A stretch of 64,000 nt of DNA, taken from positions 154,922-218,921 of IMG/VR virus record IMGVR_UViG_3300045988_107814; one strand, 5' to 3'. Under the pieces are notes generated by a model. The model had not been told where the DNA came from, ran no database searches, and saw only the letters and a program-made list of their open reading frames with translations. Position 1 is the first letter of the stretch. Every line of letters begins with the position of its first letter. This stretch comes from a virus. The position numbers and the translations under genes were made by a program. Positions 1,793-64,000 of the stretch are shown here, in pieces.

Positions 1793-4114
1793 TTAAACTT
1801 CACTAAGGTATGAAGACTCATTAAGTCTGAACTCATCAAGAGTAAGAATCTTAACTCCATACTTATTAGCTTTATCCACCTTTGATGAAGTATAACCAAC
1901 AAATGGAATCAACAAGAAGTCTGTTGTTTTTGTAACAGAACCTTCAGAACAATCATGACCTTGAATACTCAATCTGTTCTCAAGTTCCTTATCTCTTACA
2001 CCAGAGAATCTGATAGTCTTACATAAAGTTACCTTATCATTCTCTAGTCCTTTACTTGTAATAACATTTGGCATATTGTTACAAATATATACTAGATCTT
2101 TGATAAAGAACTGTCGCTCTTTGATAATAGTAGTGGCTGTTTTAGGACCGATACCCCTACCGCTATTCTCAAGTTTATAATATAATGACATATCACTATC
2201 TGTTGCAAGTTCATGCAATGACACTTTCTTCAAGATTAGTTTCCATTTCTTGTCTCCAATATCAGAGAAACCAAGAGAACCAAGCAGAATATAATCTGGT
2301 ACTTTAGAATCATATAAATGATCAATAGCCTTGATTAGATTTTCTGCATTTGTAGGACCAAGTGCCTTTGCTCTTTCTTCAGTCATTGACATAAGATCGT
2401 TAAATGATGTTAAATTAAGGGTCTTAATAGTTTCTTCAGAGAATCCTTTAAATCCTAATTTATTAACCATATTAACTACTCTTGCCCTTGTTCTACCTGG
2501 ACAACCAATATTACTACAGAATACACTTTTACTTGTATCTGATACAGATAACGGTTGACCACATTCTGGACAATTAGTAATAAATCCAAAAGGTTTCAAT
2601 GGATTGAAATCATTCTCAGGTACATTAGCTTTGTGGACATATGCCATTACATCATTAGTAAATTCAATTTCCAAGATATCATTAGGTCTTAGATTTAACT
2701 TCATGAATCTAGCATAACTATGACCAGAACTCTTTGTGTTGATCATACCATAAAACTCTACTGGATCATAATGAATCATCGGTGTTATATCGCCAGTAGC
2801 ACCAACAGTATAACTAATTCCTCTACAACGAGTAAGTTTCTTTTTGGTTTGAAACTTAATTGCAATAGAATACTCATTAATTGAATTAGATCTACCAAGA
2901 GTTTTTCTAATTTGAGGATCTAGATAAGATACAACTACTCCATCATACATAAATGGAAGAACATCTCTTACTGCTTGTGCTTCTTCTACGAATTTCTTTA
3001 CTAAGAATAATACCTTGTTATAATCTCCACGAACAACTGTATATCTACAAGGTTCACCAGTAGCATAATATTTGTTCATGAATTCAAGCTCTACATCTCT
3101 AGTCATATTATCATGACTTGTCTGCAATGGAACTAAAGTAATATACTTAGCATATTTTGAAGCCTTAGAATTACCAAGAATACCAATAATAGCATTTCTT
3201 GCATTTGCATACGTTTTACCACATTCTGCATTGAGCTGTCTGATAGCATTATACGAAATAACTGCTTCAAACTTCATACCAAATGGTTTAATATCAAATT
3301 TACCTACAGACTTAGTAAAGGTATATCCTTGAAGAATAGATGTCAGATCAGATGCTTTATCCATTTGGGTTTCACCTCTGGTTCTAGCACTTAATACTTT
3401 ATCTGTTACTTCAGCTTCGATACTAACACCATCATATTTAAGCTCTAACACAAGCTCAATATAGTTTGGATTTATGATTCCTGCTTGTACATGTTTTCTC
3501 AAGAAATCTCTTTCAAATACACGTACATTGGGGTCATTATAAACTCCACAATTAATAGCTTCGCTATCCAATACAAACTTAGCTTTGTGAAGTGTTCCAA
3601 CCAATTGAGGATACTTATGACTAGTATTTCTCAATCTCTTGGAAATAGTTTTATTCTCTTGAGAATCTACAAATTTAGATTGACCATAAGAATTACGTTT
3701 AGTAAGTTCATTACCGAATAAAAATCCATTTGTATTCATATAAGGTTGAAACTCAAACAATGATCCTTTAGGTTCTTCATCAACAAACTCTACATCAGAC
3801 GTAGAGAAGTTTGTTAATTCTACTGGTTCTGCACCTACTTGAAAATTTGGATTATATCTCTTATACTTTTCAAGAAGCATATCATAAACACCATCTTCAA
3901 GAACGAGAATACTTCTATCAGTGTTGTTATAGATAATATTAGAGATATGCAAGATATCATCTACAATACCTTGCTCAACTTCTGTCAGTGGTTCTTTGTT
4001 TAATAGATATACAATATAGCTATTAATATTAGCGATGACATCTTGTGTTAAACAAGATGCATCACCAGCTAACAGTTTTTCCACAATTGAATGCATAGGT
4101 GAAATGTTGTTCAT
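1793..4114 (-). CDS. ligA: NAD-dependent (LigA-type) DNA ligase
   Basis: Adenylation motif LELKYDGVSIE (KxDG). C4 zinc finger CPECGQPL...CSNIGCPG. HhH element GRGIGPKTA. BRCT-like C-terminus. Size and domain order as in bacterial LigA. ATGA overlap with the upstream gene. Confidence 0.88.
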   Translation of the reverse strand: MNNISPMHSIVEKLLAGDASCLTQDVIANINSYIVYLLNKEPLTEVEQGIVDDILHISNIIYNNTDRSILVLEDGVYDMLLEKYKRYNPNFQVGAEPVELTNFSTSDVEFVDEEPKGSLFEFQPYMNTNGFLFGNELTKRNSYGQSKFVDSQENKTISKRLRNTSHKYPQLVGTLHKAKFVLDSEAINCGVYNDPNVRVFERDFLRKHVQAGIINPNYIELVLELKYDGVSIEAEVTDKVLSARTRGETQMDKASDLTSILQGYTFTKSVGKFDIKPFGMKFEAVISYNAIRQLNAECGKTYANARNAIIGILGNSKASKYAKYITLVPLQTSHDNMTRDVELEFMNKYYATGEPCRYTVVRGDYNKVLFLVKKFVEEAQAVRDVLPFMYDGVVVSYLDPQIRKTLGRSNSINEYSIAIKFQTKKKLTRCRGISYTVGATGDITPMIHYDPVEFYGMINTKSSGHSYARFMKLNLRPNDILEIEFTNDVMAYVHKANVPENDFNPLKPFGFITNCPECGQPLSVSDTSKSVFCSNIGCPGRTRARVVNMVNKLGFKGFSEETIKTLNLTSFNDLMSMTEERAKALGPTNAENLIKAIDHLYDSKVPDYILLGSLGFSDIGDKKWKLILKKVSLHELATDSDMSLYYKLENSGRGIGPKTATTIIKERQFFIKDLVYICNNMPNVITSKGLENDKVTLCKTIRFSGVRDKELENRLSIQGHDCSEGSVTKTTDFLLIPFVGYTSSKVDKANKYGVKILTLDEFRLNESSYLSEV

Positions 4115-6360
4115 TTATTTTCATCTCCCATAAATTTAAACAATTGTCCTTGTACTTTGTTTACTGGGACGAACAAAGCGTCGATATCTGGATTGTTATC
4201 ATAAGGTACAAACAATTTAGATTGTGCCTCATTAACATCAGTAAACAGACCATTTGAATCCCAGCCAACAAAATAGAACAATGTGTCTTGTTGTTCTGTC
4301 GCAATGTCATTATACTTAATAGGAACTTTCTTAAATTCACAAGCAACACCCATGACTTTAAGAGTTGCATTAAGAATTTCTGCACTGCGAGACTTACCAT
4401 CCTCATCCAATACTACATTGAATTCATATGATTCAAGCATATTCTTACTACCTCTTCTTGCTTGAGGAGAAGTACTATAAATCATAAGAACTGTAACATT
4501 GACTTCAGGCCCCATAAGCATATAGATATTTTGCTCCATCTCACCATTTCTAATAGGTGTATTAGATGTAACACGCATAAACATCTTTGCTGCTTTTGAT
4601 TTAGAGTTTAGACCTCTTACATTGGTTGCAGACATAGAAGTAGCAGAATGTTTTTCTTCCGAATTCTGCTTCATTCTATATATATACTGCTTTGCAACAA
4701 TACTAGGTTTATTACTCTTTACCCATCTAGTATTTCCTCTAGAATCTTTGATAGGCACAATTGTAAATACAGGTTTGATCCATGGGAATGTATTATATAA
4801 TTCCACCAAAGTATCAAATGACACTGCATCTGAAATAGGTTCAAGAGGAATATATAATCCATCTGAATCTTCTGTTAAACAACTTACAACATTAAAACAA
4901 GCTTCTTGATCATTAATACTACTATCGATAGCATCCATAAAATATCTATCCCAATCATCTGATAAAATGCTAAAATACTCGTGCAATAATCCAACACACA
5001 TTTCAACATCAAATGACATAGTAGCCATATATCTGATGATATTCTCAGATATAAAGTTAAGCGATACCTCGTTCAACTGACCATTATTAAGTCGGTTTAC
5101 ACAAGTTGCCAAATTCCAAATGACATCAACAGGTTTACCTATATCTCCATCATCTACTCTTGGCATTTCGTTATCTTCTCTTACTTTTGAAATTACACCT
5201 TTACCGCCATATCTAGAAGTGATTTTATCACCTTCTTTTACAGGAAGACTTTCATATACAACCACTTCTACATAGATATTAGAGAATACATTGTCTTTAA
5301 AATACAATTTACCAGATAATACATCCTCACAAGTAGTATATAATTTGCTAAGTCTATGACTTTTCTTATACATAGAATTGTCAATATAATTCTTAAGAAG
5401 ATTACAAACTTCCGTACAAAATCTCTTGTTGTCCTTTACATAGAATTCTAATTGACCTTCATAGATTCCATTTGGAGTTTCTGAAATATCCTTATTACAA
5501 TACACATTGATATCAATTACTTTACCTTTAGCTTTGTAAGTAATATCATTAATCAATGTAGTCTTGAGTCTTTCTGCGGCTTGAGAGAAGAATATTTCAT
5601 CATTTCTTTCTGTTCTCACACCACAAACAATACCTTTCTTGATATCCTCACCAATGTCTGGAATGATCTTATAAATATTATCATCGCCATATAAGTTAAG
5701 AGGAATATCGTTATCGTTAATCAGAAATGCTATTTTCTTTATTTCTGGTCTTGATAATTTTTGAGATGCTGATCTAGAAATCTCAATAGCGTCTTCTGTA
5801 GTCTCTGCATCAGAAACATACATAACTCTAAGATTTCTACCAGCCATATAGTTATCAGCATCGTCAAATGATTTAGATTTCTTGACAGTTTTCCCTAAAG
5901 GGATAACATCATTGACATTCAAACTATCAAGATAGTCGTTGTTATACAAGAATCCATAAGATTCTGTATTATGACAATATGATACTCTTTCAATAACGTC
6001 CATATTATTATTCTCGTCTATTACAAACAGATAATAATGGTGTCCAGGACGATTAGAGAATTTTTCAATCTTCGCAATCACAGACCAAGCTCTGTCCGCT
6101 TTAATAAACGAAGATGAATGTTGTCCAAATAAGTTTTCGTATCCAGTACTGATATACGGTACTTCTGCATTTTCTAAGCAAACATGTTGCTGATAATGTT
6201 GAGAAAACATAGCTTTTCTTGATGCAGAGTTAGCGGCTTCAAACGGCATGTTCAAGCCTATACCCAACATTTTTTCCATGTTTCCATCATCATACTTTTC
6301 TGACGCTGCCATTATATGCTTATCAATATTGGCATCATCATATAACTTTTGATACTCCAT
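4111..6360 (-). CDS. multisubunit RNA polymerase beta subunit, C-terminal half fragment
   Basis: Colinear with the bacterial RpoB C-half. ANSASRKAMFSQHYQQ matches ANRALMGANMQRQ, GRNLRVMYV...EDAIEIS matches GQNMRVAFMPW...EDSILVS, GDKITSRYGGKGVISKV matches GDKMAGRHGNKGVISKI, and RNGEMEQNIY matches RFGEMEVWAL. Confidence 0.9.
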   Translation of the reverse strand: MEYQKLYDDANIDKHIMAASEKYDDGNMEKMLGIGLNMPFEAANSASRKAMFSQHYQQHVCLENAEVPYISTGYENLFGQHSSSFIKADRAWSVIAKIEKFSNRPGHHYYLFVIDENNNMDVIERVSYCHNTESYGFLYNNDYLDSLNVNDVIPLGKTVKKSKSFDDADNYMAGRNLRVMYVSDAETTEDAIEISRSASQKLSRPEIKKIAFLINDNDIPLNLYGDDNIYKIIPDIGEDIKKGIVCGVRTERNDEIFFSQAAERLKTTLINDITYKAKGKVIDINVYCNKDISETPNGIYEGQLEFYVKDNKRFCTEVCNLLKNYIDNSMYKKSHRLSKLYTTCEDVLSGKLYFKDNVFSNIYVEVVVYESLPVKEGDKITSRYGGKGVISKVREDNEMPRVDDGDIGKPVDVIWNLATCVNRLNNGQLNEVSLNFISENIIRYMATMSFDVEMCVGLLHEYFSILSDDWDRYFMDAIDSSINDQEACFNVVSCLTEDSDGLYIPLEPISDAVSFDTLVELYNTFPWIKPVFTIVPIKDSRGNTRWVKSNKPSIVAKQYIYRMKQNSEEKHSATSMSATNVRGLNSKSKAAKMFMRVTSNTPIRNGEMEQNIYMLMGPEVNVTVLMIYSTSPQARRGSKNMLESYEFNVVLDEDGKSRSAEILNATLKVMGVACEFKKVPIKYNDIATEQQDTLFYFVGWDSNGLFTDVNEAQSKLFVPYDNNPDIDALFVPVNKVQGQLFKFMGDENK

Positions 6361-11276: not shown

Positions 11277-11436
11277 TTATCTATATATAATTATAGTGAA
11301 TAGAGATAGACATTAGAGACTATCTTGTGAGAAGCTATTCGGTCTGGATGCTCGGAGACCTTAAACTGAGCAAGGACGAACATAAACTTTGGATCTTTAT
11401 TATGATCCGCGATGTATAAAAATGGAGGAATTCATC
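11277..11436 (+). promoter_or_regulatory. class-A conserved promoter box plus ~135-nt structured 5' leader, copy 1
   Basis: Near-identical to 38270-38428. Starts TATCTATATATAATTATAGTGAATAGAGATAG and ends AAAATGGAGGAATTCATCATG. Conserved helices at 11304-09/11320-25, 11341-45/11356-60 (alternative 11349-53/11368-72) and 11391-95/11404-08. Confidence 0.6.
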
Positions 11437-11937: not shown

Positions 11938-11969
11938 AAATCAATATATATATATACATACAATGCCTA

Positions 11970-11998
11970 AGAAACGTGTTATTGCCAAGCACGTTTCT
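11970..11998 (+). terminator. conserved terminator (cassette copy 1)
   Basis: AGAAACGTG ttattgccaag CACGTTTCT followed by TTTTT. Same stem and loop recur at 13777 and 39235. Confidence 0.8.
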
Positions 11999-12015
11999 TT
12001 TTTGACTTATTATGG

Positions 12016-12030
12016 TTAACTTTAATATAA
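12016..12030 (+). promoter_or_regulatory. AACTTTAATATAA box (candidate phage middle/late promoter), copy 1
   Basis: TTAACTTTAATATAA lies ~10 nt upstream of the SD of the prohead protease gene and directly after the conserved terminator. Confidence 0.45.
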
Positions 12031-12053
12031 AAGAACCGTAAGGAGGTATATAA

Positions 12054-12875: not shown

Positions 12876-12924
12876 AACAATAGAGAGGACATTTAAGTCC
12901 TCTCTATATTTTTCTTTTTATTTA

Positions 12925-12992
12925 TATATTATTATAGTGATAATATAGGATACGGAAATCGTTATAAAGTAACTCGTCCTATATATTGGAGG
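12925..12992 (+). promoter_or_regulatory. class-B promoter box plus ~55-nt conserved leader, copy 1
   Basis: TATATTATTATAGTGATAATATAGGATACGGAAATCGTTATAAAGTAACTCGTCCTATATATTGGAGG. Recurs at 35331-35400 (minus) and 62498-62556. Confidence 0.55.
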
Positions 12993-12997
12993 TATAT

Positions 12998-13768
12998 ATG
13001 AACAACAATAGACAGACACTTATCAATGAAGTAAATGATATCCTTAAATTCATGCAATACAGAAAATCAGTATTAGATGAAAAGCCAGAATATATAATTT
13101 ATCCAGACACAAATGAAAAAGCAATTGATTTGTTAGCAAGAAGAATGTTTATTTTAAACGAGTTCTTTAATGAATCTATCGAATCGTTGGTTGATATCTT
13201 AATTAAATATCATCCTCAACTTTTTCTTAGTGATGAAAAAGACGAGCTTACAGGTATAGTTAATGGTTTCTTAAAGCATGGTAAAAAGTTAGCTATTGGT
13301 GGTACGCCATTGCAATATGAACCAGAGGAATCTAAAGATGTCGAAAAACATATTTCTTCTGATGATATTATTGTTTATACAATAAAAGATGATAAGGTTG
13401 TAATTGCCTGGAAAACCAGACGAATCGATCAAGATTTTGATACTGTATCGTTTATCAAGCAAAATAGAATCATCAATAACTATTTCTCAGTTTATGCTTC
13501 AACACTTGATTATTTTATTAATACTTCGACTGAACCTGATAATGCTAAATATATTGCTATCAGTCCAAATGGAGCAAAAGCATATCAGATTAAAGATGGC
13601 ATGAATATTTTAGATCTTACTGTCTTTGCTATGAATAATCTTAATACAGCTCAGATTGTTCTGATTAAAATTGATAATAATATCTCCATCAAGGATGTAC
13701 CTAATATTGAATTCAATCAAATCATTTTTAGTAATGATTCAGTCCTTAATACAATGACTACTGAGTAA
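12998..13768 (+). CDS. hypothetical protein
   Basis: ORF 12986-13768 (TTG). ATG 12998 is better placed, 7 nt after GGAGG. Confidence 0.7.
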   Translation: MNNNRQTLINEVNDILKFMQYRKSVLDEKPEYIIYPDTNEKAIDLLARRMFILNEFFNESIESLVDILIKYHPQLFLSDEKDELTGIVNGFLKHGKKLAIGGTPLQYEPEESKDVEKHISSDDIIVYTIKDDKVVIAWKTRRIDQDFDTVSFIKQNRIINNYFSVYASTLDYFINTSTEPDNAKYIAISPNGAKAYQIKDGMNILDLTVFAMNNLNTAQIVLIKIDNNISIKDVPNIEFNQIIFSNDSVLNTMTTE

Positions 13769-13776
13769 TTATTACT

Positions 13777-13805
13777 AGAAACGTACTATTGCCAAGTACG
13801 TTTCT
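13777..13805 (+). terminator. conserved terminator (cassette copy 2)
   Basis: AGAAACGTAC tattgccaa GTACGTTTCT followed by TTTTT. Stem differs from copy 1 by a compensatory GTG/CAC to GTA/TAC change. Confidence 0.8.
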
Positions 13806-13820
13806 TTTTTGTCTTATAGC

Positions 13821-13836
13821 TTGAACTTTAATATAA
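13821..13836 (+). promoter_or_regulatory. TTGAACTTTAATATAA box, copy 2
   Basis: Identical 16-mer to 39279-39294, just upstream of the SD of gene 13854. Confidence 0.45.
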
Positions 13837-13853
13837 TGAGAGGAGATGATAAT

Positions 13854-19909: not shown

Positions 19910-19985
19910 TGGTTGGGATAGCTGGATTTGAACCAGCGGAATGACGGAGTCAAAGTCCGTTGCCTTACCACTTGGCTATATCCCA
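19910..19985 (-). tRNA. tRNA-Gln (anticodon UUG)
   Basis: Cloverleaf on the minus strand. Acceptor TGGGATA/TATCCCA, D arm GCC-AAGTGGTAA-GGC, anticodon stem ACGGA/TCCGT with loop CTTTGAC, and T arm GCTGG-TTCAAAT-CCAGC. Discriminator A and encoded CCA. Very close to bacterial tRNA-Gln. Variable region appears to be 6 nt. Confidence 0.85.
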
Positions 19986-33959: not shown

Positions 33960-34074
33960 TATAACAACCTCCAATACTTTAATTTCTCTATCTATATTAA
34001 TTTATTGTTTGTAGTGTGGTATTTTAATACAAAAAATAATCGTCAGATTACCCATTACGTTAGAATACGAAAAA

Positions 34075-34106
34075 ATAAAGGAGGTGAATAAAATCACCTC
34101 CTTTAT
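34075..34106 (-). terminator. rho-independent terminator after gene 34137-34709
   Basis: ATAAAGGAGGTGA ataaaa TCACCTCCTTTAT, 13-bp stem, TTTTT on the minus strand. Confidence 0.8.
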
Positions 34107-34136
34107 TCTGTTATTTGATTAAAATGTCACGTTTAA

Positions 34137-34709
34137 TCAGTCTTTAGTAGATTCTTTTTTGTTTTTATTACACGAACAAGTATGATCAACATAAATATTT
34201 TTATATAACTTATCACAAATATAATAATCTGTATTGACCATGACAATATTATTTTCAAGGGATATTAATTTATCAGCCACTTCAAAATTAAGATCAAAGT
34301 AAAGATCTGTCATCCATTTTCTAACCATCTCATGTTCACGATCAAATATAATAAATACCGGAGGAGTATTTTTAAATTTACGTGACACAATATATTCCTT
34401 GACTAGTTCACACACAAGGCTGATCGGAACATAGTCATTCCATTGTTTGACAATGATAAATTTTTTTACAACTCCGTGGCAAGCATTATAAATATTTCCT
34501 CGAATAGTTCTGAGAATGATAAGTTCTTTTACAACTTCGTAGCAAGCATCATAAGAATCTTCTCGAATAATTCCGAAATAGTTTTCAAATGCTTTGTCGT
34601 CTTCTCGATTTTTAGTAGTATCAATAATTTCGATATCTACATTGTGAGAATCTTTAGTGATTCTCACATTTTCAATACCACTACAAGGGTATGTTGTAGT
34701 AAATTCCAT
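34137..34709 (-). CDS. hypothetical protein with three tandem ~20-aa repeats; paralog of 34715-35326 in its C-terminal half
   Basis: AAGGAGG SD. Repeats are DSYDACYEVVKELIILR, IYNACHGVVKKFIIVK and ISLVCELVKEYIVSR. Shares the block ...IF(I/C)...(R/K)(K/L)W(M/V)TD... with the upstream gene. Confidence 0.65.
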   Translation of the reverse strand: MEFTTTYPCSGIENVRITKDSHNVDIEIIDTTKNREDDKAFENYFGIIREDSYDACYEVVKELIILRTIRGNIYNACHGVVKKFIIVKQWNDYVPISLVCELVKEYIVSRKFKNTPPVFIIFDREHEMVRKWMTDLYFDLNFEVADKLISLENNIVMVNTDYYICDKLYKNIYVDHTCSCNKNKKESTKD

Positions 34710-34714
34710 GATAA

Positions 34715-35326
34715 TTAGTCCTCCTTATTATTACCGAAAATCTTCTTGCATATTTTAATAAATGTTTCTTCTGTTGTCAAAAGTCTAGTGTCAAGATCTG
34801 ACAACTTTACAAAGTAATCCACTGAATCGAAATCAGGAGTATCTGTTACCCATAATCTTTTGTTGATATGATTTTTATAATAACAGATAAATATCGGTAA
34901 TTTATTTAATTCATAACCGTTGTTTCTATAATATTCGAGTACAGTTTCAATGCTGCCTTGAAGATTATAATCGTTCCAGTTTGTAATCAGAATAAATCCA
35001 TCTGTGATATCTTTACACAGATTATAAAGTTCATTTAATACTTCATCTGATTTAATGTACTGTATCATGTTTTCATTATTTGTAAAATTTATTTTAGTAA
35101 ATCTTACAGTTTCTTTGCTGACTCTTCTCATAATATTTGAGTCGTTAATACCAAGGTTTAAATTGACATTTTCTGTTTTGTTTGGTGAAATAACGATATC
35201 ACATAAACCGTTAAATTCACTTTTTTCCATGACAAAACTACTGTATGAATTAATAGTAGTAATATCATTGTTGGTGTACTTGGTTGCCCCATATGGGACC
35301 TGAATATAGTTGTTATTAGTGTTCAT
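34715..35326 (-). CDS. hypothetical protein
   Basis: ORF 34715-35338. Start moved to ATG 35326 (MNTNNNYIQ...), 6 nt after GGAGG of the class-B leader. Confidence 0.65.
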   Translation of the reverse strand: MNTNNNYIQVPYGATKYTNNDITTINSYSSFVMEKSEFNGLCDIVISPNKTENVNLNLGINDSNIMRRVSKETVRFTKINFTNNENMIQYIKSDEVLNELYNLCKDITDGFILITNWNDYNLQGSIETVLEYYRNNGYELNKLPIFICYYKNHINKRLWVTDTPDFDSVDYFVKLSDLDTRLLTTEETFIKICKKIFGNNKED

Positions 35327-35330
35327 ACTA

Positions 35331-35400
35331 ACCTCCATATATAGGATGAGTTACTTTATAACGATTTCCGTATCCTATATTATCACCGTAATAATATATA
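35331..35400 (-). promoter_or_regulatory. class-B promoter box plus conserved leader, copy 2
   Basis: Minus strand reads TATATATTATTACGGTGATAATATAGGATACGGAAATCGTTATAAAGTAACTCATCCTATATATGGAGG. Confidence 0.55.
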
Positions 35401-38269: not shown

Positions 38270-38428
38270 TTATCTATATATAATTATAGTGAATAGAGAT
38301 AGATATTAGACTATCCTTTGAGAAGCTATTCAGTCTGGATGCTCGGAGACCTTAAACTGAGCAATAGAAGAACATAAACTTTGGATCTATTACTATGATC
38401 CCTGATGAAGAAAATGGAGGAATTCATA
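38270..38428 (+). promoter_or_regulatory. class-A conserved promoter box plus structured 5' leader, copy 2
   Basis: See 11277-11436. Same start and end sequences, same helices, different loops. Confidence 0.6.
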
Positions 38429-39211: not shown

Positions 39212-39234
39212 TCTGATATAATATAACAAAAGAA

Positions 39235-39261
39235 GAAACGTGTTATTGCCAAGCACGTTTT
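39235..39261 (+). terminator. conserved terminator (cassette copy 3)
   Basis: GAAACGTG ttattgccaag CACGTTTT followed by CTTTTTT. Confidence 0.8.
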
Positions 39262-39278
39262 CTTTTTTGTTTGTTAGC

Positions 39279-39294
39279 TTGAACTTTAATATAA
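39279..39294 (+). promoter_or_regulatory. TTGAACTTTAATATAA box, copy 3
   Basis: Identical to 13821-13836. Upstream of the 39319-46707 structural operon. Confidence 0.45.
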
Positions 39295-39318
39295 ATGACT
39301 AGAAAAGGAGGATTAATT

Positions 39319-49662: not shown

Positions 49663-49750
49663 TAGGATTTACCTCCTTAAATAACAGTAGTTATATATCA
49701 TCATCTTTATTATAAAGTTTCGATATAAAATTAAAAAAAATAAAATGATA

Positions 49751-49780
49751 ATGGGATCTCTTATTTATAAGAGATCCCAT
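49751..49780 (-). terminator. rho-independent terminator after small ORF 49787-49951
   Basis: ATGGGATCTCTTA ttta TAAGAGATCCCAT, 13-bp stem, followed on the minus strand by ...ATTTTATTTTTTTT. Confidence 0.85.
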
Positions 49781-49786
49781 TAAATT

Positions 49787-49951
49787 TTAGAAACTTATCT
49801 TTTCTAAATTAGAGAGGCATTCTTCTGTTTCTCTAATTGTGTCTGAAGTCAAAGCCTCAGACATTTCTTCTATTAATGTAGCTACAAGCTGGAAATCTTC
49901 AGCCTTTGTAGCCGCATTCATTTTTTCTATTATTTCATCAACTGTGTTCAT
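49787..49951 (-). CDS. small acidic helical protein (54 aa)
   Basis: Not in the ORF track. GGAGGAAATA SD before ATG 49951. MNTVDEIIEKMNAATKAEDFQLVATLIEEMSEALTSDTIRETEECLSNLEKISF. Has its own terminator. The competing plus-strand ORF 49839-50024 has no SD. Confidence 0.55.
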   Translation of the reverse strand: MNTVDEIIEKMNAATKAEDFQLVATLIEEMSEALTSDTIRETEECLSNLEKISF

Positions 49952-50042
49952 TATTTCCTCCGATAGGATGTTGAATCTTTATAACTGTTTTACAGTATCC
50001 TATATTCATAATTATAATATATAAATAAGTTATAGCAAATTA

Positions 50043-53509: not shown

Positions 53510-55084
53510 ATGGCACAACAATCAGAAAATTATGATTACCTTTATGAGAGACTACAGGAATATTACAATGTTTCTGTAACAGGTAATTATCCGTTTAATA
53601 TTCCTTTGAATAAGAACGGACAACCGATTTATAAGTTCGAGTCTAGAATCGTTCCTATCGATTTTGACGAGACTTGTAAGAATGATATTATCAAGGGTAT
53701 CGGTTTCTATATTTCTAAGAAGCAAGATATCAAGAAGGATGTTAGATCTATTGATAGTATCTTTTCATCTAGATTTGGTATGCAAATTGATGACATGACA
53801 CCTTTTGGAGACGTTTATAAATGTAAATGTGGAAAGACAATGATGAAAGTAAACAATGGATTGTTTTGCCCATTTTGTCACACAAAGGTTAGATATGTTG
53901 CAAATGACTTCTCTATTACTGGTTGGATTAAGATAAATGATTTTGAAATTATCCATCCAAACATGTTTAAGAAGTTAATCTCATTTATGGGAAAGAAAGT
54001 TTTGGATTCTATTATTAATATAGATACTAAAACAAACGAGGATGGTTTTGAAAATGTAAAAGAACCATCCAAAGCAAGTCCGTTTTCTGGTCTTGGCTTT
54101 ATCAAGTTTAAAGAGAGATTTGATGAAGTTATGGAATTCTACAGAAATAAGTACAAATCTAATGCAAATAAGATGGCTTATTATGAAGACATTATGCAGA
54201 ATAAGAAAATTGTATTTTGTCATTGTCTTCCAGTTTATACTTCTCAGTTAAGACCATTCTCTATTAAACAGAATAAATTTAACTTTGAAGGTAATAATGC
54301 ACTTTATAATCTTATTGCTGGATTAGTTGCTAAGCTTAATAAACACAATATTTATTCTCGTAATAGAAATAAGCCGACTAATCAGATTCTGTATGATATT
54401 CAAATGAAGTATATGGAGATCTATGCAGATCTTGAAAAGGTAATTGCACAAAAGAAAGGTTATACTAGATCTCTTAATGGTGGTAGATATAACTTTACTG
54501 CAAGAAATGTAATTATTCCTGATCCTGATTTAAGGATTGATGAGATCATTCTTCCATATCCATCATTGATAGAATTAATGAGTCTTACTATCATTAATAT
54601 TCTTACAAAGACATATAGTCCGTCAGAAGCTTATAGAATTTGGGATGAAGCTCGTATTGAGTATAATCCTATGATTGCTGATTTGATACAGAATATTATT
54701 GATAGTCAATATGTAGCAATTACACTTAATCGAAATCCTAGTATTTCTCCGTCTTCTATTATTCAGCTTCATGTAGTTGGAGTAACTAAAAATGACACTT
54801 ATAGTTGTCATGTACCTCACGAGATTCTCAAATCAATGGGTGCAGACTTTGATGGCGATACTTTGAATATTCTTCTTATTATTAATGATGAATTCTTATT
54901 AAATGCTGCTAAGTTGTTTAATCCTAGACTCAGTATGCAAATATCATATAATGATGGAATGTTTAATGGTAAGATGTCATTGCAGACCGATACAATGATC
55001 TGTATTAATTCATTTACTCAGCTTGGAATTGATAGTATTACTGATGAAGAGTATGCTATGATTGAAGCTTGTCAAAATTCATAA
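53510..55084 (+). CDS. multisubunit RNA polymerase beta' subunit, N-terminal fragment with catalytic DFDGD loop
   Basis: Zinc ribbon YKCKCGK...CPFCH. LNRNPSISPSSIIQLHV matches LNRAPTLHRLGIQAF. Catalytic MGADFDGDTLN matches NADFDGDQM. Confidence 0.9.
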   Translation: MAQQSENYDYLYERLQEYYNVSVTGNYPFNIPLNKNGQPIYKFESRIVPIDFDETCKNDIIKGIGFYISKKQDIKKDVRSIDSIFSSRFGMQIDDMTPFGDVYKCKCGKTMMKVNNGLFCPFCHTKVRYVANDFSITGWIKINDFEIIHPNMFKKLISFMGKKVLDSIINIDTKTNEDGFENVKEPSKASPFSGLGFIKFKERFDEVMEFYRNKYKSNANKMAYYEDIMQNKKIVFCHCLPVYTSQLRPFSIKQNKFNFEGNNALYNLIAGLVAKLNKHNIYSRNRNKPTNQILYDIQMKYMEIYADLEKVIAQKKGYTRSLNGGRYNFTARNVIIPDPDLRIDEIILPYPSLIELMSLTIINILTKTYSPSEAYRIWDEARIEYNPMIADLIQNIIDSQYVAITLNRNPSISPSSIIQLHVVGVTKNDTYSCHVPHEILKSMGADFDGDTLNILLIINDEFLLNAAKLFNPRLSMQISYNDGMFNGKMSLQTDTMICINSFTQLGIDSITDEEYAMIEACQNS

Positions 55085-62497: not shown

Positions 62498-62556
62498 AAT
62501 ATTATAATAGTGATAGGATACGAAAATCGTTATAAAGTACACGTCCTATATGGAGG
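62498..62556 (+). promoter_or_regulatory. class-B promoter box plus conserved leader, copy 3
   Basis: AAATATTATAATAGTGATAGGATACGAAAATCGTTATAAAGTACACGTCCTATATGGAGG. Confidence 0.55.
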
Positions 62557-62562
62557 TTTAAT

Positions 62563-63060
62563 ATGAATATTAACTTTAAAGATTATCTTGCTCTGAGATA
62601 TGTATCTGATAAAGATATTAGTCCAGAGTATGCGGTAGAAGAAATTAACAAAAAATTTTATAGAGTTGAAGAAGTATCAGTAGATGAAATAATTGATACT
62701 AATGGGCCTGACTTTGATGGTGTATTTAAAACAGATAAACTTTATAAATTCACCGGCCATTGTTCTATCGACAGGCAATTTATTTCATATTATGTCGATT
62801 ATAGAAAGATCGGGTACAAGTTTACATTATCTTTCTATATTAATGGTAAGAAAATAAAAGTTAAAGGTGACTGTGTTAAGAGATTAATTTCTCTTATACA
62901 AACATCCGAAGATGATTCTGATAATGATAGAACTATTGATCTGTTAAAAGAAGAGTCTGAGATGGATTTGACAGTGTATTTCAGACTTATTGATTTAGAC
63001 AGATTCAATGATCTTCGTCATAAATACTTTTTACTTTCTAAAGAGGATTTAATGTCATAA
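62563..63060 (+). CDS. hypothetical protein
   Basis: 165-aa ORF, TGGAGG SD supplied by the class-B leader. Confidence 0.7.
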   Translation: MNINFKDYLALRYVSDKDISPEYAVEEINKKFYRVEEVSVDEIIDTNGPDFDGVFKTDKLYKFTGHCSIDRQFISYYVDYRKIGYKFTLSFYINGKKIKVKGDCVKRLISLIQTSEDDSDNDRTIDLLKEESEMDLTVYFRLIDLDRFNDLRHKYFLLSKEDLMS

Positions 63061-63110
63061 TTAATAAAAGGGGTTTAATAAATTTTGACAAATAACAGGA
63101 GGAAATAATT

Positions 63111-63518
63111 ATGTTGTTTGATGTAAAGAGTATTGTTGAAGCGTTAAAAGAAGAAGGTATTTTGTATGATAACCATACTGTATTACCTAAATATTTTGAA
63201 GTCTATATTATCAAGATTATAACAGATGAAGGAAAAGAATATTATTTTACCTTACCACTAAGTCTTTTTATTAAAAATGATGGTGCTAATATTGCTATTA
63301 AAAATATAATTGAGTATCATATTGGTAGTGATATTGAAACTATAAATAGTATAAAGGAAATCATCATTATTCTAGACTATAAGGTCTATCATAAATATTT
63401 CAAAACTTCTAAAGGTATGTATGATAAAATGATCTATATTGAGAAAGGTGTTAAATACGGTCCTTGTCTATATAGAGAAGATTTTAAATACAAAGAAACT
63501 TCTATAAGAAAAATATAA
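63111..63518 (+). CDS. hypothetical protein
   Basis: 135-aa ORF, CAGGAGG SD. Confidence 0.7.
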   Translation: MLFDVKSIVEALKEEGILYDNHTVLPKYFEVYIIKIITDEGKEYYFTLPLSLFIKNDGANIAIKNIIEYHIGSDIETINSIKEIIIILDYKVYHKYFKTSKGMYDKMIYIEKGVKYGPCLYREDFKYKETSIRKI

Positions 63519-63526
63519 AAAGAAAT

Positions 63527-63551
63527 AAAGCTGGACTTTACATCCAGCTTT
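63527..63551. terminator. bidirectional terminator between convergent genes
   Basis: AAAGCTGGA ctttaca TCCAGCTTT followed by ATTTTTTG; T-rich on the other strand too. Confidence 0.8.
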
Positions 63552-63560
63552 ATTTTTTGT

Positions 63561-63824
63561 TTACTTAATTTCAGATGTTTTTACCCAACCAGTTACATAG
63601 TTACCGATAGGAGTTCTACCTACATTGATAGTAGAGTTTGTAATACGAATTCTTCCGTTAGAAATCTCGTTACTATAGATGTAATAAGTACCAGACTTCT
63701 TGCCACCAGATGTAGCAGTAGCAGAAGAATATAAAGTAGCATTACTTAAAGTTACCTTAGTACCAGCTGTTAAAGTTTTCTTAACAGGTGCAGATGTTGC
63801 AGTTCCTTTGACAGCAGATACATC
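63561..63824 (-). pseudogene. out-of-frame terminal SH3b-like cell-wall-binding repeat (87-codon ORF; frameshifted continuation of the gene at 63757-64000)
   Basis: Read by hand; absent from the supplied ORF track. From aa ~17 it encodes KTLTAGTKVTLSNATLYSSATATSGGKKSGTYYIYSNEISNGRIRITNSTINVGRTPIGNYVTGWVKTSEIK. This is nearly identical to the repeat encoded upstream in another frame. Confidence 0.6.
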
Positions 63825-64000
63825 AACCCAACCAGTTACATAGTTACCGATAGGAGTTCTACCTACATTACTAGCAGAGTTAGTAATACGAATCTTATTG
63901 TTTATAACTTCACTACTATAGATATAATAAGTACCAGACTTCTTACCACCAGATGTAGCAGTAGCAGAAGAATATAAAGTAGCATTACTTAAAGTTACCT
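63584..64000. repeat. tandem direct repeat, period 244 bp (not a multiple of 3)
   Basis: CCCAACCAGTTACATAGTTACCGATAGGAGTTCTACCTACATT occurs at 63584 and again at 63828. The ~170 nt shared within the window are near-identical. Confidence 0.85.
63757..64000 (-). CDS. C-terminal part of a protein with tandem SH3b-like cell-wall-binding repeats (probable endolysin or wall-binding protein); 5' end outside the window
   Basis: Open frame from the window end to TAA at 63759-63757. Reads VTLSNATLYSSATATSGGKKSGTYYIYSSEVINNKIRITNSASNVGRTPIGNYVTGWVDVSAVKGTATSAPVKENFNSWY*. Confidence 0.6.

Follow-up and report, generated by a model that had tools for sequence, protein, structure and literature searches.

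Probable structured RNA leaders between predicted early promoters and Shine-Dalgarno motifs in an apparently AR9-like jumbo phage

Why does the same block of about 55 nt stand directly ahead of the GGAGG of three genes, on both strands, in one viral genome? The initial annotation of this DNA, a stretch of 64,000 nt that is called the window throughout, had read the block as a 5′-UTR whose ends can pair and which could gate translation. The locus thus raises the questions of what the block is a part of, whether it acts as an RNA, and what such an RNA could do for the genes behind it. These questions have a wider interest. Jumbo phages with their own multisubunit RNA polymerases (RNAPs) express their genes independently of the host, and very little is known about post-transcriptional control in the early phase of their infection.

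The pattern TAGGATACGRAAATCGTTATAAAGTA matches the window with 0 mismatches at 12946(+), 35377(-), and 62514(+), against 0 matches expected (100 shuffles). The three copies that had been annotated are all at their reported places, and each of them is followed by GGAGG and an ATG (at 12998, 35326, and 62563). The count of three was too low, however, and the total in the window is four. The overlooked fourth copy, which was first seen in a promoter scan, is diverged and lies on the minus strand (motif 49963-50003, predicted transcription start site (TSS) 50007), where it precedes a 54-aa ORF (49951..49787). It is matched with E=4.9e-12 by nhmmer and with 47.6 bits by the covariance model. A covariance-model scan of the window and about 17 kb of extra flank (L311-L314), i.e. 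about 81 kb of the roughly 219-kb genome, found no copy beyond the four.

Every copy, in the window as well as in the relatives described below, is in sense orientation and is situated between an early promoter and GGAGG-AUG. The common layout is TATATTAT-N6-G(+1), 1-6 nt, a fold of 37-41 nt, 0-7 nt, GGAGG, 4-7 nt, and AUG. The predicted fold consists of a 7-bp closing helix (P1, AUAGGAU/RUCCUAU), a hairpin of 4-5 bp with an A-rich loop (P2), which is stacked on P1 and continuous with its 5′ strand, and a 3′-side bulge of 12-14 nt, UAUAAAG(A/U)N3-6C, which links the 3′ side of P2 to the 3′ arm of P1. Both the inner hairpin P2 and the invariant bulge had been missing from the earlier description of the block. 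The features of the four copies and their units are as follows.

12880-12907 and 13777-13805: terminators flanking the unit of copy 1
12925-12939, plus strand: promoter core of copy 1, TATATTAT, with the N6 spacer TATAGT and the predicted +1 G at 12939 (exact match to TATATTATNNNNNNG; AR9 consensus)
12945-12982, plus strand: predicted RNA motif of copy 1 (covariance model, 59.4 bits; RNAalifold gives the same P1 and P2)
12945-12951, plus strand: 5′ arm of P1, copy 1
12952-12962, plus strand: P2 hairpin ACGG-AAA-UCGU, copy 1
12963-12975, plus strand: bulge UAUAAAGUAACUC, copy 1
12976-12982, plus strand: 3′ arm of P1, copy 1
12988-13768, plus strand: unit of copy 1, with the SD motif GGAGG at 12988-12992, ATG at 12998, and a 256-aa ORF to 13768
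35384-35398, minus strand: promoter core of copy 2, with the N6 spacer and the predicted +1 G at 35384
35341-35378, minus strand: predicted RNA motif of copy 2 (covariance model, 58.3 bits), with U-A instead of U·G as the innermost P1 pair
34072-35336, minus strand: transcription unit of copy 2, with the SD motif at 35332-35336, ATG at 35326, and a 203-aa ORF to 34715
34709-34137, minus strand: second ORF of copy 2 (190 aa), followed by a terminator at 34109-34072
62498-62512, plus strand: promoter core of copy 3, AATATTAT (one mismatch), with the N6 spacer AATAGT and the predicted +1 G at 62512
62513-62549, plus strand: predicted RNA motif of copy 3 (covariance model, 61.1 bits), with P2 ACGA-AAA-UCGU; it starts 1 nt past the +1 G
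62552-63558, plus strand: unit of copy 3, with the SD motif at 62552-62556, ATG at 62563, and a 165-aa ORF to 63060
63111-63518, plus strand: second ORF of copy 3 (135 aa), followed by a terminator at 63520-63558
50007-50021, minus strand: promoter core of copy 4, with the N6 spacer and the predicted +1 G at 50007
49963-50003, minus strand: predicted RNA motif of copy 4, diverged (nhmmer, covariance model), with P2 ACUGU-AAA-ACAGU and the bulge UAUAAAGAUUCAAC
49749-49961, minus strand: unit of copy 4, with the SD motif at 49957-49961, ATG at 49951, a 54-aa ORF to 49787, and a terminator at 49782-49749

A distance of 3-6 nt between the helix and the SD motif had been given. The element does always adjoin the SD motif, but the measured gaps from the 3′ arm of P1 are 5, 4, 2, and 1 nt for the four copies of the window; in the relatives they range from 0 to 7 nt.

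To which kind of phage the window belongs is indicated by its proteins. The prohead protease is closest to those of the Bacillus phages Goe21, AR9, and PBS1 (32% identity), with weaker matches to Yersinia phiR1-37 and to jumbo Staphylococcus phages. The window and its flanks encode RNAP beta-like and beta′-like proteins, an NAD-dependent ligase, and gyrase A. PF00562 (RNA_pol_Rpb2_6) matches the 749-aa product of 4111-6360, and a faint match to PF00623 is found on the 524-aa product of 53510-55084. Proteins identical to those of the window are present on contigs of 192-219 kb from human-microbiome assemblies. Because of the prohead protease, the RNAP-like genes, and the contigs with identical proteins, we assign the window, on sequence grounds, to an uncultivated AR9/PBS1-like jumbo phage. 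Its G+C content is 30%, and a megablast search with 4 kb against GenBank phages gave no close DNA relative.

The early genes of AR9 are transcribed by an injected virion RNAP from promoters of the form AAATATATATTAT-(N6)-G, with the G as the mapped start, and 39 mapped early promoters with that consensus are listed (Lavysh et al. 2017, PMC5312081). An exact TATATTAT-N6-G is found upstream of copies 1, 2, and 4, and AATATTAT-N6-G upstream of copy 3; the four promoters read TTTATATATTAT-TATAGT-G, CTTATATATTAT-TACGGT-G, TTAAATATTAT-AATAGT-G, and TTTATATATTAT-AATTAT-G. The window has 14 exact TATATTAT-N6-G sites, while 4.4 are expected, and about 15 intergenic promoter sites face a GGAGG-ATG 38-140 nt downstream, four of which carry the RNA element. 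Further early TSS candidates are at 1746(-), 6417(-), 23408(-), 27555(-), 29199(-), 30995(-), 36615(+), and 52968(+). Both the promoter consensus and the split RNAP beta/beta′-like genes of the AR9 type are thus present.

This comparison changes the reading of one part of the block. A separate box, (A/T)TTA(T/C)(A/G)GTGA, had been described ahead of each copy. It is made up of the N6 spacer and the +1 G of an early promoter of the AR9 type; by analogy with AR9, the TTATAGTGA box would be the 3′ part of a promoter of the virion RNAP. The interpretation of the block as a 5′-UTR holds well, as every copy begins 1-6 nt past the predicted +1 G of a promoter with the AR9 consensus. With the box assigned to the promoter and the TSS taken from AR9, the conserved block is predicted to form the whole 5′ leader of some early transcripts, and these transcripts would be made by the virion RNAP.

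Relatives of the element were found only after P2 had been relaxed in the search pattern; the exact 24- and 22-nt motif patterns gave no match in IMG/VR and the GTDB genomes. The relaxed pattern revealed copies in related IMG/VR contigs of 212-219 kb. The motif is also carried by a 212.7-kb contig (L022/L023, CAADXH010000018.1) from a metagenome-assembled genome (MAG) named Bacilli bacterium HGM10607, and by a 55-kb contig (L021, JAMPGO010000005.1) from a MAG named Ruminococcus flavefaciens. The former has the size of a whole phage genome. The binning of these contigs is either a hint at the host or a mis-binning of phage contigs. A scan with the promoter and the bulge that left P1 free uncovered a second clade on contigs of 223-225 kb. 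The proteins of the second clade are about 33-38% identical to those of the window, the respective values for the first group being 57-92%, and the element is retained at about 35% protein identity while its flanks are unrelated.

Other searches were less productive. A scan with the promoter and the 5′ arm of P1 yielded almost only chance matches, and the same was true for the matches listed in a scan with the promoter variant TATAWAAT. One candidate carrier, L098, was rejected as a chance match. At the gathering score, Rfam 15 had no match in the window except for a tRNA, and at E<=10 there was none on 12900-13010 and none on the clade-2 motif of L058 and L087. The matches of both leader types to GenBank phages in blastn searches were chance matches only, and the covariance model found no copy in 250 kb of AR9, where the best score (18.8 bits) was within a coding region. 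As no match was present in Rfam 15, AR9, or the GenBank phages, we regard the element as a new RNA motif that belongs to a known general type, i.e. a structured cis-acting leader that is also a mobile regulatory cassette. A look-alike that has no P2 was seen in L148/L120 (IMGVR_UViG_3300028048_000045, 276 kb; 3300028886_000233). It reads TATATTAT-TATAAT-G-A-ATAGGATAC-TAAAGAAGAAAA-TCCTAT, shares the promoter type and the P1 arms, and is followed by GGGGG-ATG about 20 nt later; either reduction of a related element or convergence may account for it.

Does the block act as a folded RNA? RNAalifold predicts P1 and P2 unprompted from the four window copies. The helix between the ends of the block, which had been proposed from the three copies, is kept in 13 of 13 distinct variants and includes two double-compensatory pairs. 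A covariance-model search across the full genome and relatives with a test for covariation had been recommended; the helix is maintained in the further copies, which came from pattern scans of relatives. Across 13-15 distinct variants, most of them from relatives ascertained by patterns that fix some of the motif bases, all seven pairs of P1 are fully paired. Position 2 is U-A or G-C and position 6 is A-U or U-A, both double changes, and position 7 is U·G or U-A, a one-sided change. The “register switch” that had been suspected between CATCCTAT and CGTCCTAT dissolves on this view, since it is merely the exchange of U·G for U-A at the innermost P1 pair.

The pairs of P2 were counted in a hand-made structural register, as the MAFFT alignment mis-registers this hairpin; MAFFT-based counts understate its pairing because the length of P2 varies. 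Position 3 occurs as G-C, U-A, A-U, C-G, and U·G, i.e. as all four Watson-Crick pairs plus the wobble, position 4 occurs as G·U, A-U, and G-C, and the base of P2 is a fixed A-C/G-U. When the 3′ halves were shuffled among the sequences, the observed full pairing was reached in 0 of 20000 cases for P2 and in 27 of 20000 cases for P1, the covariation of which comes from one clade split and few independent lineages. Single-sequence minimum free energy (MFE) prediction yields the P1+P2 fold for 13 of 15 variants, and single-sequence folding energies do not differ significantly from those of shuffled sequences (z = -0.2, -1.0, and -0.1). The alignment contains 12 G·U cells, at which the opposite strand would have A·C mismatches. 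These pairs are valid only in the sense orientation, and therefore the structure belongs to the sense RNA. The bulge is invariant wherever copies were found without constraining it, i.e. in the four window copies and in one filtered promoter/P1-5′-arm scan. Taken together, the block is very probably an early 5′-UTR with an RNA structure that is under selection.

What would such a structure do? We favor an account in which the element is an early 5′ leader with a protective fold that keeps the SD motif free, offers a surface to a factor, and travels as a portable cassette. For the account as a whole, we estimate a probability of roughly 0.55. The element would probably control how early messages are kept or translated.

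The first component, protection, is suggested by the position of the fold. P1, or an extension of it, begins 1-6 nt from the predicted 5′ end, and in several relatives the +1 GAU pairs with an AUC just before the SD motif. P1 may thereby bury the 5′ end, as simpler hairpins would do in most other early leaders, and protect the message. For comparison, we analyzed the other early leaders of the window. Eight of 10 have a hairpin at +1/+2, with unrelated sequences, and their first 32 nt fold better than random segments that start with G (p=8e-5). The latter value is from an ensemble-based test, which was used instead of a crude contiguous-stem test for 5′ hairpins that was not significant. Owing to these hairpins and the good folding, a 5′-terminal helix looks generally required in this phage, and its general role would most simply be 5′-end protection.

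The same observations are compatible with a pure 5′-end stabilizer or insulator, acting with no factor and no switch, that shields the triphosphate end from 5′-dependent decay and keeps the UTR from pairing with recombined coding sequences, and it is in line with the latter role that the cassettes front frequently exchanged genes. However, a stabilizer of this kind needs neither an invariant bulge of 8 nt nor a fixed A-C/G-U base of P2, and it does not need a P1 sequence that is nearly invariant across phages as distant as the two clades. The other early leaders form their 5′ hairpins with unrelated sequences. We therefore regard a pure stabilizer as unlikely, although it is the rival that survives best.

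Because a plain stabilizer leaves the invariant bulge and the A-rich loop unexplained, we propose that these two parts may be what a trans-acting factor recognizes. A nuclease or an RNA-binding protein, of the phage or of the host, would be a more likely candidate than a small ligand, and such a factor could co-regulate a small regulon of early accessory genes. That a factor gates translation or decay through the element is a tentative proposal, to which we give clearly less weight than to the structure itself. Two other explanations for the leader were considered and rejected: it has no ATG, which excludes a leader peptide, and the 5′ arm of clade 2 has no GGA, which excludes CsrA-type GGA sites.

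The second component concerns the SD motif. In both clades, the 5′ arm of P1 resembles an SD motif (AGGA / AGAGGU) and the 3′ arm an anti-SD sequence (UCCU / CCUCU). For this reason we propose that the formed P1 keeps the true SD motif free, and that its loss would let the 3′ arm mask the SD motif. In silico, P1 neither overlaps nor occludes the SD motif, and blocking the 5′ arm lowers the accessibility of the SD motif in 22 of 23 leaders (e.g. 0.97 to 0.42, 1.00 to 0.22, and 0.93 to 0.27), so that P1 would represent the ON state, if a switch exists. The alternative pairing of the anti-SD-like arm with the SD motif is only about 3 bp long in the window clade, and in several leaders the predicted accessibility of the SD motif depends mostly on pairing with the coding region.

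An arrangement of SD-like, anti-SD-like, and SD sequences could also be that of a small riboswitch, in which a ligand would be bound in a pocket made by the P1/P2 stack and the A-rich bulge, and a ligand-stabilized P1 would free the SD motif. Covarying stems, invariant junction nucleotides, and a position directly upstream of the SD motif would all be expected, and 37-41 nt is near the size of the smallest known aptamers. Among these, preQ1-I (RF00522) is the most similar, being likewise very small and having a helix of the AGAGG/CCUCU type, an A-rich strand (AUAAA...CUA), and a nearby SD motif; the clade-2 P1 (AGAGGUU) resembles what we take to be the start of the B. subtilis preQ1-I aptamer. 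In the present element, in contrast, the A-rich strand is enclosed by P1 and preceded by an additional hairpin, no Rfam riboswitch model including RF00522 matches either clade at E<=10, and the downstream genes are not queuosine genes. They belong to several unrelated orphan families and not to one pathway, and several copies per genome in front of early orphan genes are better explained by the target of a protein or a nuclease. Together with the weak alternative pairing in the window clade, this makes a riboswitch quite improbable.

Even less probable is a co-transcriptional element that acts on the phage RNAP and alters elongation or termination, like lambda nut or HK022 put. The location immediately downstream of early promoters, a hairpin with an A-rich loop plus an adjacent conserved single-stranded box, and units that end at intrinsic terminators would suit such an element. 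But it accompanies only four of the roughly 15 early promoters of the window, units of one or two genes need no read-through, and the coupling to the SD motif at 0-7 nt in all variants is unexpected for an element that controls elongation.

The remaining component of our favored account, the portable cassette, can be seen in the genes behind the copies and in their exchange between strains. The genes had been described as lying in small islands bounded by terminators, and this is what we find: each copy heads one or two small ORFs with a strong intrinsic terminator at the end. The description of the genes as unrelated is correct insofar as several orphan families follow the copies. It does not apply to the two genes of copy 2 (35326..34715 and 34709..34137), which are tandem paralogs (34% identity over 64 aa, E=1e-8). 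Homologs of this family are directly behind the motif in L008, L011, L013, and L016, and in general the motif-led ORFs can be grouped into a few families, members of which also follow the motif in other genomes. Comparison of the motif-led proteins with Pfam, PHROGs, and PDB sequences gave nothing usable.

Several strains differ exactly at these units. Strain L007 lacks cassette 4 entirely, from its promoter and leader through the 54-aa ORF to the terminator. In L008, where the 203-aa gene is missing, the homolog of 34709..34137 is joined directly to the leader and the first four codons of copy 1 (ATGAACAACAAT). The leader of copy 2 is identical to that of copy 1 in L007 and L008, and therefore recombination between copies occurs; likewise, copies within one genome are more alike than their positional counterparts in other genomes, indicative of an exchange between copies. 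The borders of insertions, deletions, and swaps coincide with the repeats in L005, L007, and L008. We conclude that the unit of promoter, leader, and SD motif is a portable DNA cassette that borders strain-specific gains, losses, and swaps.

A repeated composite was noted at 11969-12034, 13776-13841, and 39233-39298. In it, the intrinsic terminator AGAAACGT..ACGTTTCT-T6 is combined with a GAACTTTAATATAA box similar to the late promoter of AR9 (AACA-N6-TA). As the composite also follows motif-led genes in L014, L017, and L020, the cassettes have repeats at either end.

That the likeness of copies within genomes, including the identical leaders in L007 and L008, reflects nothing but a neutral repeat, i.e. 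a promoter cassette that was recently duplicated or gene-converted, or that the block is an inverted-repeat DNA operator, is almost certainly wrong, because compensatory changes preserve both helices, the G·U pairs are valid in the sense RNA only, the element persists across clades with unrelated flanks, and an operator, rejected here on account of the covariation and the G·U pairs, would conserve the sequence of its half-sites rather than their pairing.

Which known systems come closest to a structured leader on a portable cassette? The early promoters and UTRs of AR9 share the promoter architecture AAATATATATTAT-N6-G(+1), the phage is of the same type, i.e. a jumbo phage with split multisubunit RNAP genes, and its early messages are not leaderless (PMC5312081). 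A motif in the early 5′-UTRs of AR9 is presented there as a figure and left unexplained (PMC5312081). AR9 differs in having no copy of the fold according to the covariance model, and most of its mapped early UTRs are 26-50 nt long and predicted to be unstructured, mostly without a 5′ hairpin.

The PeSL cassettes of T4-type phages are likewise repeated units of an early promoter, a stem-loop, and an SD motif, which precede small non-essential ORFs of unknown function and at which the borders of strain-specific indels and replacements are found (Arbiol et al. 2010, PMC2839356). Their promoter is of the sigma-70 type, and the stem-loop, within or upstream of the promoter, terminates upstream transcription (PMC2839356). 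In contrast, the units described here have a virion-RNAP promoter, their stems are situated between the +1 and the SD motif and have no U tract, and their intrinsic terminators are separate; moreover, the stems covary as RNA and enclose an invariant bulge. The present element therefore shares with PeSL the repeated unit at strain-variable borders, and differs in the absence of a sigma-70 promoter and a terminator stem.

Stabilizers of Firmicute messages, such as the ermC and aprE leaders and the cryIIIA STAB-SD, have a helix or an SD-like purine tract near the 5′ end. The element resembles them in having a helix a few nucleotides from the 5′ end and an SD-like tract upstream of a strong GGAGG, and differs from them in that the SD-like tract is itself paired in P1. 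To our knowledge, the Firmicute stabilizers neither form a sequence family with an invariant bulge nor occur as multiple copies in one genome. The RegA operators and the RegB GGAG sites of T4 are short, largely unstructured sequences at the SD motif or the AUG. Here, too, one cis signal beside the ribosome binding site is common to several unrelated early messages, which would allow a coordinated shut-off, but it is a covarying fold of 37-41 nt upstream of the SD motif.

If the favored account is correct, the element provides a handle on the control of early messages, as it has the support of covariation, is present several times per genome, and appears to be confined to early mRNAs of the virion RNAP. 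It would mark co-regulated orphan early genes, which are candidates for roles in host takeover or anti-defence. The promoter-leader unit would double as a recombination module, extending the PeSL idea from T4 to another lineage and another type of polymerase. Should the bulge bind a factor or a ligand, the element would also be a compact and portable part for the control of expression. A bolder conjecture, which we consider rather unlikely, is that the element represents a novel class of aptamers, restricted to uncultivated AR9-like jumbo phages that infect Firmicutes of the gut and the rumen. The bulge and the loop would then bind a dedicated protein of the phage or the host, or else a small molecule, and toggle P1 between an SD-open and an SD-masked state, creating a post-transcriptional regulon for fast-evolving early accessory genes (host takeover or anti-defence) on a plug-in cassette of promoter and leader.

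Three further features of the window were noted. A tRNA gene is located between phage genes at 19913-19985(-) (Rfam tRNA, 68 bits). At 63572-64000, a direct repeat of 243 nt, with two copies that are 88% identical, runs off the end of the window; in the source contig, a gene on the minus strand for a 301-aa protein of glycoside hydrolase family 25 is found there, and since the repeat falls on this gene, it is probably a pair of repeated lysin domains. Lastly, a second family of early leaders, with a length of about 139 nt, is present at 11298-11436(+) and 38291-38428(+). Its two copies are 78% identical, have an AR9-type promoter (CTATATATAAT-TATAGT-G), and are predicted to form strong folds (MFE -30.8 and -25.6 kcal/mol). 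In place of the gene that follows the 11.3-kb copy, strain L005 has a relative, with 74% identity, of the gene that follows the 38.3-kb copy.
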